Below are positions 3,822 through 42,161 of a stretch of DNA of 64,000 nt, piece by piece. The translations under genes and the position numbers were made by a program. Positions within the stretch are counted from its first letter, which is position 1. Each line of letters opens with the position of its first letter. A model generated the notes under the pieces. The model did not search any database, was not told the DNA's origin, and was given only the letters and a program-made list of their open reading frames with translations. This stretch comes from a virus. Lineage: Duplodnaviria > Heunggongvirae > Uroviricota > Caudoviricetes. The DNA is taken from the IMG/VR virus record IMGVR_UViG_3300029922_000040. The stretch is one strand, 5' to 3'.

Positions 3822-3865
3822 TTTTTTCCCAAAACTAGCCAAAACCCCCGCCATCTCGGTATACT
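3822..3865 (+). promoter_or_regulatory. conserved phage promoter copy 1 (A-tract, TAGCCA, 18 nt, TATACT)
   Basis: tttttttcccaaaacTAGCCAaaacccccgccatctcggTATACT; -35-like at 3836-3841, -10 at 3860-3865. Confidence 0.5.
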
Positions 3866-3882
3866 AGTGGTGGGAGAGAAGA

Positions 3883-4464
3883 ATGACCACGACGATTGAA
3901 AAGCGCATTGAAGGTCTGGAGAACTTCAAGGAAATCGTAGGGAAGTTCATTACCCGCCTCGGCGACCCCTCGAAATATGAGTTTCGGGGTGAAGTCATCG
4001 ACCTCGGCGAGTATGGCAAGGGCAAATGTACATGTGACCACCCGGTTCGCTACATGCTCTTGATTTGGGGTCCGAACGGTGAGGTTGCCCCGGTTGGCGT
4101 GGAGTGCATCAAGCACTTCGCTGCCTACAACGAAACCCTGTTCAACAAGCTCGAAGGTGCCCGTCTTGGCCTTATGGAGGCTCTCGCCGCTGATGAGCGC
4201 GAGAAGACTCAGGTTCGTCAACAGGCGGAGCGGAGTAAGCTGCAACCCATCTACGAGCTTGCTCGTCGTCGCTTCCTCGCAGTCTGCAAGATGCATCAGG
4301 ACAACATCAGCACGTACCTCCCTCATGCGATGTGGACGCTCAAAGCTAACCTGTTGAAGAAGGCTGAGTACAAGACAACCAATGGTTACCTTAAGTTTTA
4401 TACCCGCATGACTCTCGAAATCGAGAAGACACTCGGCATGTACGAGAGAGGAGAGTTACGCTAA
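3883..4464 (+). CDS. hypothetical protein (193 aa)
   Basis: ORF following promoter copy 1, with a gggagag SD. Confidence 0.65.
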   Translation: MTTTIEKRIEGLENFKEIVGKFITRLGDPSKYEFRGEVIDLGEYGKGKCTCDHPVRYMLLIWGPNGEVAPVGVECIKHFAAYNETLFNKLEGARLGLMEALAADEREKTQVRQQAERSKLQPIYELARRRFLAVCKMHQDNISTYLPHAMWTLKANLLKKAEYKTTNGYLKFYTRMTLEIEKTLGMYERGELR

Positions 4465-4784
4465 TGCTAGTCAACTTCAATGAACTACAGCGAGAAGCTA
4501 AGGTACCGGGCTCTCGCTTCAGGAAGGAAACTGTGATTCCTAAGCGGACATGGGGCGGAATCAAGTTCACCTTCCGTGAAGGTGTATGGTACTCGGAGAG
4601 TGGGATTGAACTCCGGTGTGCGTCCGCTCTACGTTCTCCCTTGTCCGACCATTGGAGCCTCCGGTATCAGGGTCGCAACCTGAACAGCGGGATGTCCGCC
4701 GAAGAGGCTGTAAAAATCTTCTTAAAAACTCACCAAAACCCCAGCGGCTTCGGTACGGCAAGCCCTACTGGGACTAAGGACTAA
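4464..4784 (+). CDS. hypothetical protein (106 aa)
   Basis: ORF whose start overlaps the stop of the preceding gene. Confidence 0.55.
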   Translation: MLVNFNELQREAKVPGSRFRKETVIPKRTWGGIKFTFREGVWYSESGIELRCASALRSPLSDHWSLRYQGRNLNSGMSAEEAVKIFLKTHQNPSGFGTASPTGTKD

Positions 4785-4786
4785 CA

Positions 4787-4957
4787 ATGCCAAGCACCCT
4801 TGCAACTGAAACCATTTTGGAAGTCAAGAAACTCGCAAGAGAGTACACCGAGAAGACGTTCATCGCTCCCGGTGTGAGTGAATACCTGACAATTGAAAAC
4901 GCCATGCTGGGTGCCGCTATCCATGTGCTGAAGGTGCTGGAAAGGTTGAAGCTGTAG
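4787..4957 (+). CDS. small hypothetical protein (56 aa)
   Basis: Unlisted small ORF from ATG 4787 to TAG 4955-4957, fitting the gap between neighbouring genes. Confidence 0.35.
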   Translation: MPSTLATETILEVKKLAREYTEKTFIAPGVSEYLTIENAMLGAAIHVLKVLERLKL

Positions 4958-4968
4958 TATAATGAGGT

Positions 4969-5229
4969 ATGAACTTCCTCAAACGCTTTTTCTCTAAACC
5001 TGACCCGATTCCGGCGTCCATCTGGATGCCAGAGACCGACGTAGAGTTGTTAAACAAGGGTATCTGCCCAGACTGTGGTTCAACCTCCCGGACAAGCAAC
5101 GGTTCTCGAACGATTGAATGTGGGGGTTGTGGTAGCGCATTTGGTGTCATCCCAGCCACACCGCCCTTCATATCCGCCAGTCACATTGGGTTCAACCGCG
5201 ACAAAAGAAAAGAGCTTCAAGTCAAATAA
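4969..5229 (+). CDS. small zinc-ribbon protein (CPDCGS...CGGCGS)
   Basis: 86-aa ORF with two CxxC pairs. Confidence 0.5.
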   Translation: MNFLKRFFSKPDPIPASIWMPETDVELLNKGICPDCGSTSRTSNGSRTIECGGCGSAFGVIPATPPFISASHIGFNRDKRKELQVK

Positions 5230-5272
5230 TTTTCCAGATTACTAGCCAAACCCGGTATAGGATCGGTATACT
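5229..5272 (+). promoter_or_regulatory. conserved phage promoter copy 2
   Basis: TAGCCA 5243-5248, 18-nt spacer, TATACT 5267-5272. Confidence 0.5.
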
Positions 5273-5310
5273 GGAAACAGCAGCGAAACACGTCTTGAAA
5301 GGACAACCGC

Positions 5311-5853
5311 ATGAGCACCACACCCGCTATTGGAACCCCTGACATCGACCTCGATGATATGATTTTTGTGTTTGGCAGCAACGAACTCGGTCGCCATGGC
5401 GGTGGAGCAGCAAAGGCTGCAATGTCACATGGAGCCCGGTACGGACAGGGCTTCGGTCTGCAAGGAAAGAGCTTCGCCATCCCCACCTGTGCCAAGCCTA
5501 CCAATGAGCCTGACTCCACCATCACCCCGGACATGCTCCGTTACTACATCTATACCTTCATTCTCTTCGCGAAGATGAACCCCCAACTGACCTTCCAAGT
5601 GACTCGTGTCGGCTGCGGCCTTGCTGGCTGGGCGGACGGCGTTGTCGCTCCCCTCTTCACCGAGGCACCGGCAAACTGTCAGTTTGATGGCGCATGGGAG
5701 CCCCTGTTGCCCGGTCGCAAGTATTGGGGCTCATTCGGCGGCATGGTCATCCAATCCCCTGCATTTCAAGCGGCCACGGATGTTGTAAAGGGTAGCGTAA
5801 CCATCGACGCCGAGGCCGATAAGGTCGGCACCGTGAAGCAGTTGATTGGGTAA
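5311..5853 (+). CDS. Rossmann-like protein with a Gly-rich loop (FVFGSNELGRHGGGAAKAA); possible macro-domain or SLOG/DprA-like nucleotide/ADP-ribose-binding fold
   Basis: The motif hhFGSN..G.HGGGAA.A resembles the macro-domain NAAN..LGGGGV..AI and SLOG/LOG/DprA glycine loops. By-eye only. Confidence 0.55.
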   Translation: MSTTPAIGTPDIDLDDMIFVFGSNELGRHGGGAAKAAMSHGARYGQGFGLQGKSFAIPTCAKPTNEPDSTITPDMLRYYIYTFILFAKMNPQLTFQVTRVGCGLAGWADGVVAPLFTEAPANCQFDGAWEPLLPGRKYWGSFGGMVIQSPAFQAATDVVKGSVTIDAEADKVGTVKQLIG

Positions 5854-5855
5854 GC

Positions 5856-40713: not shown

Positions 40714-40748
40714 AATAGTATCCAAAACGTTGGTGTCTCCGATATACT
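40705..40748 (+). promoter_or_regulatory. conserved phage promoter copy 12
   Basis: TATCCA 40719-40724, 18 nt, TATACT 40743-40748. Confidence 0.5.
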
Positions 40749-40768
40749 AATCATGTGGAGGAAACACC

Positions 40769-41017
40769 ATGAACGAGTTGAAAGCCCGGAAAGTCGCAAA
40801 CGAGAGGTTAGCTGCAATGCCGACCTACCACCCGTTCATCCCCATTGAAGACATCGACAGCATCCTGACCGCCGCAGGTTTCAACGGAATGGAACCCGCC
40901 ATCTTCTGCGGTCGCGAAGGTCGCAGCAATGAGCCGGTTGGTGAGAAGACTTGGCTGAGCATGACTTGGTACAAGATGCCCTCCGGTAACTACGAAATCG
41001 TCGCTTACGTTAGCTAG
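40769..41017 (+). CDS. hypothetical protein (82 aa)
   Basis: ORF with a ggagg SD. Confidence 0.5.
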   Translation: MNELKARKVANERLAAMPTYHPFIPIEDIDSILTAAGFNGMEPAIFCGREGRSNEPVGEKTWLSMTWYKMPSGNYEIVAYVS

Positions 41018-41033
41018 GAAAGGACACAGGATT

Positions 41034-41480
41034 ATGGGTCGGTTCTATGAAACACACGAAGACCGTCTTGAGGCTGAACTGAAGTATGAAATCTCTGTCC
41101 GTGACCTAGTTCCGGCGGGGCACTGGTGGTTCGCAGGATGGACAAACTGGTTCGACGCCCCACCTCCGGCCAATGTCGAGGTCGAGTACATGTATACCGA
41201 TGGACGCCGGTTTGGTATCAAAGTGTTTGAAGACCCGGCGAACACATGGTACTCCCCAGTTGCCTCTTGGTGGTGGCGTATCCCGCCTATCGGCCTGTAC
41301 TACAACCCTGACAACATGCCGCTGAAAACCTTCGTGCTGGTACGTGCCGACCTCGGACCACACTTCGCTACCGAGATGTGGGAACAGGCTCGCCGTCGCA
41401 TGGAATGGGCACCGACTCCACTGCCCTACAACTCCGCTCTGGCTCGTATTCAACGTGGAGAACTGGTGCCGTTGCAATGA
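41034..41480 (+). CDS. Trp-rich hypothetical protein (148 aa)
   Basis: ORF. Confidence 0.55.
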   Translation: MGRFYETHEDRLEAELKYEISVRDLVPAGHWWFAGWTNWFDAPPPANVEVEYMYTDGRRFGIKVFEDPANTWYSPVASWWWRIPPIGLYYNPDNMPLKTFVLVRADLGPHFATEMWEQARRRMEWAPTPLPYNSALARIQRGELVPLQ

Positions 41481-41510
41481 GGTTGCTTAACACCTTTAAG
41501 TTGAGACAAG

Positions 41511-41708
41511 ATGATTCGGAACATGGTTAACTTCCCTTTCCCTCAAGTCTGTGTCCACAATGTGGCCGGGAGTTTACTATCCATGCTGGAAGAGTACGGG
41601 GGCACCGATAATCTACCTCCTGAGGAACTGAAAGCGTTAGCCAGAGCCATCGTTAGGGCTGAGGACGATGAGTCGTATCGAATACTCACAGCCATCATTG
41701 GAGAATAA
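41511..41708 (+). CDS. small hypothetical protein
   Basis: ORF. Confidence 0.4.
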   Translation: MIRNMVNFPFPQVCVHNVAGSLLSMLEEYGGTDNLPPEELKALARAIVRAEDDESYRILTAIIGE

Positions 41709-41709
41709 C

Positions 41710-41886
41710 ATGCCAAATTCCTTTAGTCAGCGTCTCGAACTCGCCAAGAACATTCCAGCCAAGGTGCAGGAATTTCTGCACTCTTTGAACCGTCGCGAAG
41801 CCAGTGAACTATGGGATTGGCTGGACGCTGCCGGTACCGATGGTGGCCGTCTTCTCCAACATTTTGTCGAAAGGAAAATTATCTGA
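41710..41886 (+). CDS. small hypothetical protein (58 aa)
   Basis: ATG 41710 within ORF 41668..41886. Confidence 0.4.
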   Translation: MPNSFSQRLELAKNIPAKVQEFLHSLNRREASELWDWLDAAGTDGGRLLQHFVERKII

Positions 41887-42117
41887 TGCTGACATCGCAC
41901 ATGCAGATGTACGGTATGCGGCAATGAGGAGCTTTGTAAGCAGGAGTCTTGCGAAAGCCGCCCGGTCGCTTGGTTTTCATGGGCCGACAAGGCCCGGTGT
42001 AAGGCCCATGAAATACAAACTGAACCACCCGTCTGGCTGGATGTCTGGGAATTGCCAGAGAAACATCCACACTTCATGCACTAGCTTGGCATGTGAATGT
42101 GACTGCCATGGAAAAAT

Positions 42118-42161
42118 TATTCCGAAAAAAGTAGCCAAAAAACCTACGAGTTCGGTATACT
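42118..42161 (+). promoter_or_regulatory. conserved phage promoter copy 13 (leaderless configuration)
   Basis: TAGCCA 42132-42137, 18 nt, TATACT 42156-42161; ATG at 42168. Confidence 0.5.

Follow-up and report, generated by a model that had tools for sequence, protein, structure and literature searches.

The early promoters of bacteriophage T4 have been described as 'uber UP/-35/TGn/-10' sequences with additional consensus (PMC2988021), and in the T4-type early promoter cassettes known as PeSLs the promoter consensus departs from TTGACA in a lineage-specific manner (PMC4122927). T4 middle promoters carry a MotA box at -30, (a/t)(a/t)TGCTT(t/c)A, and are used through sigma appropriation by AsiA and MotA (PMC2988021). 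The Thermus 'Lalka' phages use promoters of the host sigmaA and carry a type V CRISPR locus; their early and middle promoters match TTGACA/TAxxxT, while TAGGGT marks the late class (bioRxiv 10.64898/2026.04.20.719267). In Deinococcus, leaderless genes have been shown experimentally to carry a -10 element 6-7 bp upstream of the open reading frame (ORF) (PMC12340547), and genes predicted to be leaderless account for 39% in Deinococcus-Thermus, 19% in Actinobacteria, 16% in delta-proteobacteria and 13% in Acidobacteria (PMC3160421). Here we describe a promoter-like element that is repeated through a 64,000-nt stretch of phage DNA (~51% G+C; IMG/VR record IMGVR_UViG_3300029922_000040, Caudoviricetes), which is referred to below as the window.

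The window contains 13 near-identical copies of the element and one variant. All are on the + strand and non-coding, and every copy is located directly upstream of a co-directional gene. An earlier description made from the letters alone, the sequence-only reading, had listed fourteen copies; all of them are real, its numbers giving the first base of the TAGCCA-like hexamer, and one coordinate needed correction from 39555 to 39554. When the 15-mer AAAACTAGCCAAAAC was searched with up to 3 mismatches, 15 matches were obtained against 2.15 expected, a count that none of 100 shuffled sequences reached. With up to 1 mismatch CGGTATACTA gave 13 matches against 1.19 expected, exclusively on the + strand. 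The 13 sites align without gaps over ~55 bp, and the spacer from TAGCCA to TATACT is invariant at 18 nt. Scored with a position weight matrix (PWM) of 51 columns, the sites reach 38-63 bits, on the + strand only, whereas the maximum in shuffled sequence is 15.2. The non-coding DNA, which makes up 13% of the region, holds 13/13 of the -10 hexamers (P = 4e-12). The motif is therefore confirmed and lies far above chance. A repeated phage promoter with apparently leaderless outputs is well supported in silico. The kind is already known, from phage early-type promoter families, PeSL-like cassettes and leaderless starts; the -35 region is unusual.

Copies of the element are unevenly placed. A PWM scan found none between 42.2 and 64 kb of the window or in the 7 kb past the window end, the terminase region included. 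An additional strong leaderless copy, 3 kb upstream of the window, precedes a Ku-like gene (L050:1752). Paralogous copies within the window are identical at no more than the random level in the flank (25%) and spacer (29%); the figures for the upstream block and the -10 block are 65% and 86%. Orthologous copies have likewise diverged in spacer and flank. The conservation therefore points to selection on specific positions and not to recent duplication.

The information content of the element was calculated over 35 pooled sites, made up of the 13 window copies and 22 distinct sites from related IMG/VR contigs. Numbered from the predicted start site, a distal A/T tract (-56..-47) holds 0.98 bits per position, a proximal A-run (-42..-38) 1.47, CTAGCC (-37..-32) 1.61, AAAAC (-31..-27) 1.59, (t)CGG (-16..-13) 1.15, TATACT (-12..-7) 1.94 and the -1/+1 step 1.02. 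The far upstream sequence holds 0.06, the spacer 0.27, positions -5..-2 0.31 and the transcribed positions +4..+30 0.18. The -10 element is TATACT in 13/13 window copies, and TACTAT in the variant; it is of the TAnnnT type with A-11 and T-7. Between the upstream block and (t)CGG the spacer is 10-11 nt long and free of constraint, and the G at -14 is positioned as in extended -10 elements. TAGCCA is a 4/6 match to TTGACA located at an invariant 18 bp from the -10, and the conserved block around it is wider than a hexamer.

The fraction of A/T is 0.89 at -56..-47 and 0.95 at -42..-38, versus 0.49 further upstream. When TAGCCA is numbered -35..-30, these blocks occupy -54..-45 and -41..-37. UP-element subsites have been mapped to -58..-45 (distal) and -45..-37 (proximal), and as both A/T blocks lie within these positions we consider them UP-element-like (PMC2613000). 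Three A-runs, at about -51, -40 and -29, are spaced roughly one helical turn. The idea that the A/T tract forms a conserved hairpin or terminator was not supported: hairpins of note were found at 23077 (z = -5.7), 39575 (z = -3.4) and 23457 (z = -2.8) and at none of the other 10 copies, and terminator-like sites on the + strand are not enriched. The distal tract is occasionally near-palindromic, e.g. GGAAATAATTTCC.

Downstream of the hexamer, nucleotide 6 is a pyrimidine and nucleotide 7 a purine (Y-1/R+1) in 34/35 sites, and the same step is present in 15/16 sites where no ATG imposes it (P = 1e-8). This is a known start-site preference of bacterial RNA polymerase (RNAP), here at the canonical distance, and the purine is the predicted start site. 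The sites had been called promoters in the sequence-only reading, and a sigma70-type promoter sequence is supported by the bipartite layout, the fixed 18-bp spacer, TATACT with A-11 and T-7, and the Y-1/R+1 step. Promoter elements read by extracytoplasmic function (ECF) sigma factors stand ~16 nt apart. Taking AAC as an ECF-type -35 and CGT as the -10 was rejected, as AAAAC and CGG are separated by 11 nt. The conserved stretches would correspond to the positions contacted by a sigma70-type holoenzyme, and the free ones to positions that are not read base-specifically (PMC2988021, PMC2613000).

In 7/14 window copies, namely 3, 7, 8, 10, 11, 12 and 14, the ATG of a substantial ORF is located exactly 6 nt after the hexamer, and an ATG at one exact offset in 7/13 copies has a probability of P = 3.6e-10. 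Such a geometry leaves no room for a Shine-Dalgarno (SD) sequence upstream of the ATG. Copies 3, 7, 8, 10 and 13 had been proposed as leaderless; this holds for the first four, but copy 13 is leadered (GGAGG, ATG 40769), and copies 11, 12 and 14 had been overlooked. The ORFs that begin in this manner within the window span 94-1018 aa. Copy 3 (6288..6346) has its ATG at 6344, the predicted +1, and opens a 129-aa ORF (6344-6733), for which an independent JGI gene call begins at the same ATG (L050 11063). Copy 7 (23036..23094; ATG 23092) precedes a 94-aa ORF, copy 8 (23416..23474; ATG 23472) a 501-aa PARP-like ORF, and copy 10 (28566..28624; ATG 28622) a 424-aa ORF of the CCA-adding/poly(A) polymerase family, in which the Pfam domain starts at residue 21, near the N terminus. 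The variant reported at 32562 is real: copy 11 (32542..32600) consists of an A/T tract, CAGCCA, 18 nt, TACTAT, 6 nt and the ATG (32598) of a 1018-aa helicase-methyltransferase ORF, and it heads a 7-kb cassette. It scores just 8 bits (matrix match at 32583) owing to a 1-nt indel upstream, with its own A/T tract present. Copy 12 (39534..39592; ATG 39590) precedes a 137-aa ORF directly after a CRISPR-like array, and orthologous promoter-plus-gene units occur in the related contigs L020, L022 and L035. Copy 14 (42112..42170; ATG 42168), the last in the window, precedes a 110-aa ORF that begins MAKITVRP.

Gene calls, domain positions and orthologues conserved from codon 1 together indicate that the ATG at +1 is a genuine translation start, as far as sequence comparison can tell. 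Leaderless translation is suggested by the geometry, which fits the 6-7 bp between -10 and ORF in Deinococcus, and such a geometry points to a host that translates leaderless mRNAs well. The phage lambda cI gene, when transcribed from PRM, is a leaderless gene. The leaderless genes of Deinococcus-Thermus, Actinobacteria and other groups resemble those described here in having TANNNT 6 nt before the ATG, no SD, and a geometry that is conserved between orthologues (PMC12340547, PMC3160421). Unlike in those bacteria, the -10 here belongs to a complete UP/-35/-10 composite, of which one phage genome carries repeated copies, and the leaderless genes stand alongside SD-led genes with a strong GGAGG.

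Three of the leadered copies, listed at 3857, 27377 and 40740, have an SD that starts at +1 to +3 and a predicted leader of 11-14 nt. Copy 1 (3816..3872; 59 bits) would start at G 3872, with GGGAGAG from +1 and the ATG of a 193-aa ORF at 3883. Copy 9 (27336..27392) would start at G 27392, with GGAGG from +1 and the ATG of a 121-aa ORF at 27403. In copy 13 (40699..40755) the predicted +1 is G 40755, GGAGGA begins at +3, and the ORF that starts at 40769 encodes 82 aa. Leaders are longer at two copies: 20 nt at copy 5 (22302..22358; listed at 22343; +1 at G 22358), with GGAGGA before the ATG (22378) of a 96-aa ORF, and 32 nt at copy 2 (5223..5279; listed at 5264; +1 at A 5279), with the SD AAAGGA before the ATG (5311) of a 180-aa ORF matching phrog_2072.

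The two remaining copies have non-coding or structured outputs. Copy 4 (listed at 13795) forms a unit with its leader at 13754..13885. The ATG at its +1 opens only a leaderless 10-codon mini-ORF, MLIVSFGWVV, which is encompassed by a structured 76-nt leader (13810-13885; fold z = -4.0). An HNH/endonuclease VII-like gene (13886-14617) follows with no obvious SD, and leader and mini-ORF could act as a translational control device. Copy 6 (listed at 22702; 22661..23032 with its transcript) would start at A 22717 and give a ~316-nt ORF-free transcript (22717-23032) ending in a GC-rich hairpin at 22996-23027. The overall fold of this transcript is weakly better than that of shuffled sequences (z = -1.5), and an Rfam search with it gave no match. 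Its 5' end, GGCAACAGYGC, recurs downstream of motif copies in the related contigs L005, L030 and L007, and in L007 a cluster of 14 tRNA genes follows the homologous leader. The transcript was also considered as a trans-activating CRISPR RNA (tracrRNA) and rejected, the longest anti-repeat anywhere being at most 9 nt. In agreement with the sequence-only reading, copies of the element precede the PARP-like gene, the CCA enzyme, this ORF-free transcript and the gene that follows the CRISPR array.

Three further sites are incomplete. A decayed copy at 4710..4766 (listed at 4751; 28 bits), within the 3' end of ORF 4464-4784, retains the A/T tract and AAAACTCACCAAAAC intact, while its -10 position reads TACGGC; an intact upstream half with a destroyed -10 suggests that copies are gained and lost. 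A weak, possible copy of leaderless geometry at 3309..3367 (listed at 3350 and 3353; 7.9 bits) has a degenerate block followed by GTGTATACTG, 5 nt and the ATG (3365) of a 107-aa ORF, and a JGI gene call begins at this ATG (L050 8084). At 18296..18335 (listed at 18321) a weak, possible leaderless site with only a -10 consists of GCCAAAAACCGGGTATTAT, 6 nt and the ATG (18333) of a 54-aa Cys-rich ORF. These three sites are likewise on the + strand.

Relatives of the window were retrieved with a pattern restricted to part of the -35 block and the -10 block, and were then scored with the matrix. This gave 43 further distinct strong sites, 22 in viral (IMG/VR) contigs and 21 in metagenome contigs. 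These relatives also show the A/T tracts, the Y-1/R+1 step and an ATG at +1, none of which was part of the search pattern, and the recurrence of both the composite motif and the leaderless geometry in related contigs constitutes independent support. The leaderless arrangement is found in 12/22 of the IMG/VR sites, with ORFs of 73-440 aa (P = 1e-16), and at further metagenome sites. Orthologous proteins are conserved from codon 1 (MAKITVRP/MARITVRP; MKELHITS/MKELRITS/MRELKITS), in contrast to the 5 nt ahead of the ATG, which vary. The Ku-like, 129-aa and 107-aa genes begin at the predicted ATGs in independent gene calls as well.

Large phages that are more distantly related and come from similar samples, represented by L010, L023 and L024 (contigs of 97 and 184 kb) and by L003 (a 332 kb contig), share the A/T tract, GGTATACT and the leaderless ATG. 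In the -35 slot L010 and L023 have GTTGTTC, and L003 has TGGACA-N18-TATAAT. The upstream block thus differs by lineage. Reading TTGTTC in L010/L023 as a more canonical -35 was rejected, as this register would need a 19-bp spacer.

Homology segments obtained by blastn between the relatives and the window begin at the 5' edges of motif copies (3815-3831, 39543-39548, 40700 and 42107-42153) and stop at the end of the first downstream gene. Homology with L088 and L097 starts at 3815-3831 (copy 1), and with L020, L035 and L142 at 40700 (copy 13). The motif spans make up 1.4% of the window, and 10/35 upstream homology ends fall inside them (P = 5e-11), as opposed to 0/34 downstream ends. A promoter with its first gene thus appears to behave as a module, the relatives keeping the modules and swapping the DNA between them. 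L020 has its orthologue of copy 12, with the gene, almost immediately after the orthologue of ORF 32105-32548. Because L020 joins these flanking orthologues, the 7-kb segment of the window between them (32542-39533), which is bracketed by copies 11 and 12 and absent from L020, is seen as an inserted or replaced cassette. It contains the variant copy 11, the helicase-methyltransferase ORF (1018 aa), two ORFs of 108 and 856 aa, the longer of which has no detectable homologue, and the CRISPR-like array. The UP-like A/T tracts, the start-site dinucleotide, the placement of the SD at +1 and the occurrence of copies as module boundaries all go beyond what had been noticed in the sequence-only reading.

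The CRISPR-like array of this cassette occupies 38693-39470 and has a 36-nt repeat, CCTGTAGACTTACTGGATTTGAAGGCTGAATCCAAC. A terminator-like hairpin at ~38600-38640 and a perfect TATAAT at 38667 precede the array. No anti-repeat was found in the window. A search of 596 Gb with the 19-nt hairpin core of the repeat gave four single matches, as many as chance would give, and the core does not occur as arrays in 185,579 genomes.

The T4 early promoters and PeSLs (PMC2988021, PMC2839356, PMC4122927) are similar in several respects. They too are over-conserved promoters with an AT-rich upstream part, a -35 and a -10 followed by an SD or start codon; they are present in dozens of copies, in accessory, ORFan-rich regions and not in structural modules, and they are located at the boundaries of indels and replacements. 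However, a stem-loop or terminator in front of the promoter is not the rule here (1-3/13 copies), the spacer is 18 bp versus 17 bp, and CTAGCCAAAAC is unrelated. PeSLs, moreover, end in an SD and start codon, while every second copy here is leaderless. Apart from its rIIB-like gene, the phage is not detectably T4-like.

Our preferred explanation, which we regard as probable, is that the copies are a family of strong promoters read directly by the host RNAP with its primary sigma70-type sigma factor. Under this explanation, the copies would drive a rightward block of non-structural and accessory genes through the multisubunit RNAP of the host. The distal A/T tract and the proximal A-run would be read by the C-terminal domains of the alpha subunits (alpha-CTD), TAGCCA would occupy the -35 slot and TATACT would serve as the -10, with initiation at the purine +1 after the pyrimidine -1. 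At half of the copies transcription would begin with the A of the ATG, and the resulting leaderless mRNA may be bound directly by the 70S ribosome with initiator tRNA. Most other copies would place an SD GGAG at +1 to +3 and yield an 11-14-nt leader, and two would produce non-coding or structured leaders. Relatives would exchange DNA between promoter-gene modules, as do the T4-type early promoter cassettes. What the sequences themselves show is the anatomy of the element, with its statistics and conservation, and the boundaries of the modules; the identity of the polymerase and sigma, the start site, early timing, leaderless translation and the use of the alpha-CTD are what we infer from these features.

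Searches of ~80 window ORFs against Pfam and PHROGs identified no sigma, RNAP, helix-turn-helix (HTH) regulator or MotA/AsiA domains. No catalytic motif of the DxDGD type was detected in ORFs of at least 150 aa across ~76 kb, and PDB sequence searches with the 856-, 867- and 911-aa ORFs gave no matches. The bipartite layout, the near-consensus -10, the UP-like tracts and the lack of a detected phage sigma or RNAP favour the host RNAP with its primary sigma. The Lalka phages (bioRxiv 10.64898/2026.04.20.719267) are comparable in that they have no recognisable RNAP or sigma, TANNNT with a start 6 nt further on, a class-specific consensus and a phage CRISPR array. No sequence relationship to them was found, however, and here the CRISPR cassette lies between two motif copies. 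Early timing is suggested by gene content, by position opposite the packaging module and by absence of the motif there; the 'temporal regulon' of the sequence-only reading would follow from gene content and that same absence. Genes with early-like character include rIIB-like, Ku, ligase, PARP-like, CCA enzyme, Lar-like and GmrSD_N genes and many ORFans.

Several observations weigh against direct reading by the host holoenzyme. A generic sigma70 scan rates the sites 9/12, equal to background, and generic sigma70-like matches are not enriched over shuffled sequences. The conserved block at -42..-27 is broader than a -35 hexamer and among the best-conserved parts of the element. The earlier designation of TAGCCA as -35-like is consequently uncertain, given the 4/6 match, the background-level scan score and the width of the block. 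The same phage has a TTGACA-N16/17-TAATCT site at ~49380, and, before a vault-like gene, the A/T tract of the family with TTGCAA-N17-TAACGT in place of the motif (L050:4612-4665). With such TTGACA-like promoters coexisting, the polymerase appears able to read a canonical -35, which leaves the strict conservation of CTAGCCAAAAC unexplained. In the L010/L023 lineage the block is different while tract and -10 are the same. Additionally, a sigma factor or polymerase could be encoded in the unseen part of the genome, which amounts to at least 40 kb.

These points could be accommodated if the promoters were of a middle type, akin to sigma appropriation, and formed a second temporal class: the host RNAP would read only the GGTATACT -10, and CTAGCCAAAAC would be the site of a phage adaptor, activator or sigma. 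We consider this unlikely, while recognising what speaks for it. The block is non-canonical, 11-16 bp long, centred at ~-32 and ~12-14 bp from the -10, a geometry like that of the MotA box (PMC2988021), and it is conserved as strongly as the -10. The coexisting TTGACA-like promoters could be the true immediate-early class, the GTTGTTC block of L010/L023 beside a retained A/T tract and -10 would fit a lineage-specific reader, and the many small ORFans could hide such a factor. T4 middle promoters are indeed similar in combining a sigma70-like -10 with a conserved non-TTGACA block near -30/-32 (PMC2988021). The block is nevertheless unrelated to the MotA box, and the motif differs from T4 middle promoters in its strong UP-like tracts; these tracts and the fixed 18-bp geometry fit direct recognition by the holoenzyme. 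Searches of the ~80 ORFs detected no domain of the MotA, AsiA, sigma or HTH kind, though a non-homologous functional analogue is possible. T4 early and PeSL promoters also depart from TTGACA and yet are read by the host sigma70 (PMC4122927). Moreover, the motif spans nearly the whole non-structural block, genes neighbouring rIIB included, which leaves few genes for an earlier class. A bolder form of the proposal appears to us distinctly doubtful, namely that CTAGCCAAAAC (-37..-27) is read by a phage adaptor or dedicated phage sigma in place of host sigma region 4, as a kind of sigma appropriation outside the T4-like phages, and that each ~55-bp unit, with its built-in start at a leaderless ATG or an SD at +1, is a portable cassette for the capture and exchange of cargo, the CRISPR module included.

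Promoters of a phage-encoded RNAP, whose gene would lie in the unseen part of the genome, are a very unlikely source of the motif. Candidates would be a virion multisubunit enzyme of the phiKZ/AR9 type, a single-subunit enzyme of the T7/N4 type or a YonO-like two-barrel enzyme. The virion RNAP promoters of phiKZ and AR9 share with the motif a conserved early-gene consensus and a start fixed 6 nt downstream (PMC5312081), and among the ORFs of this large genome three, of 856-911 aa, lack detectable homologues. However, known promoters of such enzymes are single and contiguous, as in AR9 (AAATATATATTAT-(6N)-G) and in the T7-like promoters of ~20 bp, or are hairpins as in N4. Those of phiKZ/AR9 are single extended AT-rich blocks used by a phage multisubunit RNAP, whereas the motif is bipartite or tripartite: its 2-3 blocks, of which the upstream one contains GC, are set apart by a spacer of 10 nt that carries no information, and it has UP-like tracts and a near-consensus hexamer resembling TATAAT. 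Neither an RNAP domain nor the DxDGD motif was found in ~76 kb, and the 856-aa ORF adjoins the CRISPR array and is missing from relatives that retain the promoters. That the element is no promoter at all, and instead a recombination or mobility repeat or a regulator operator with a chance TATAAT-like word, is hardly credible: copies do coincide with the boundaries of swapped modules, a decayed copy exists and the distal tract is near-palindromic in some copies, but orientation, position and distance to the start codon are fixed relative to the genes, Y-1/R+1, ATG at +1 and SD at +1 are features of transcription and translation starts, inverted terminal repeats and target duplications are absent, and a boundary role is compatible with promoter function, as in PeSLs.

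The window belongs to a large uncultivated phage of at least 117 kb: exact matches to its proteins place it on contigs of several metagenomes, 101.7 and 116.6 kb in length. An rIIB-like gene and a Ku-like gene are found ~4.7 kb upstream of the window, and the 3' end of the window is the large terminase subunit. From 3.8 to 47 kb essentially all genes are rightward and accessory or early-like. They encode a DNA ligase, an HNH-RNA ligase, a histidine phosphatase, a ClpX-like ATPase, a TnpB-like ORF, the PARP-like protein, the CCA-adding enzyme, the helicase-methyltransferase, a GmrSD_N-domain protein, a Lar-like protein and many ORFans. The window yielded no tRNA genes and no Rfam families. Megablast of 8 kb against deposited phages found no close relative, a rIIB-based search of viral contigs found no relatives, and in tblastn searches the DarB-like ORF, the terminase and the CCA enzyme had distant matches only, at no more than 35% identity. 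The Acidobacteria jumbo phage Tunturi_5, which gave the only noteworthy matches to a cultured phage, had the best E-value for two of these queries (33-34% identity), a likeness that may be taken as a hint and is too weak for host assignment.

Other features of the window deserve mention. An 851-aa ORF at 2-2557 contains major-vault-protein shoulder and repeat domains (Pfam E = 4e-23), which is unusual in a phage. The TnpB/Cas12f-like ORF at 20973-22181 (OrfB_IS605 and TNB domains) has thousands of homologues at 60-99% identity in metagenomes; with homologues this close, some of them on contigs of ~0.5 Mb, it looks like an active insertion sequence family shared with cellular genomes. ORF 27903-28361 contains a perfect tandem duplication of 24 bp (27980-28028; two copies of AATTTTTGGCTTGGCCGTCAATCT). 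At 49378-49515, between two minus-strand genes, the TTGACA-N16/17-TAATCT site on the + strand is followed by ~100 nt of structured RNA (z = -4.0) and then by a terminator, strong and bidirectional (AAAAAAGCGGCC...GGGCCGCTTTTTT). The region is a candidate for a small RNA, with a promoter type unlike the motif family. The terminase (62359-63999; to 1059 aa in L046) has a LAGLIDADG-like domain match at residues 374-424, which suggests an intein or a homing-endonuclease insertion.

T4 Alt and ModA ADP-ribosylate the alpha subunit of RNAP and thereby alter UP-element use (PMC2988021). It is pure speculation that the PARP-like protein at 23472-24977, with its catalytic and regulatory domains, could feed back on UP-containing promoters in a similar way.

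For a clade of large, uncultivated phages represented only by metagenomic and viral contigs, the promoter family offers a precise transcription map that can be tested, with 15 predicted start sites here and 43 in relatives. It places seven gene starts, including those of the PARP-like enzyme, the CCA-adding enzyme and the first gene of the CRISPR-bearing cassette. The leaderless geometry would narrow the host candidates to groups in which leaderless mRNAs are common, namely Deinococcus-Thermus, Actinobacteria, Acidobacteria, delta-proteobacteria and Aquificae (PMC3160421), and the designs with AUG or SD at +1 are unusually compact expression parts. Should the odd -35 block prove to depend on a phage factor, promoter-specificity switching would gain a new case. 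The location of promoter copies at the edges of exchanged modules would extend the PeSL idea of promoter-mediated gene shuffling beyond the T4-like phages.

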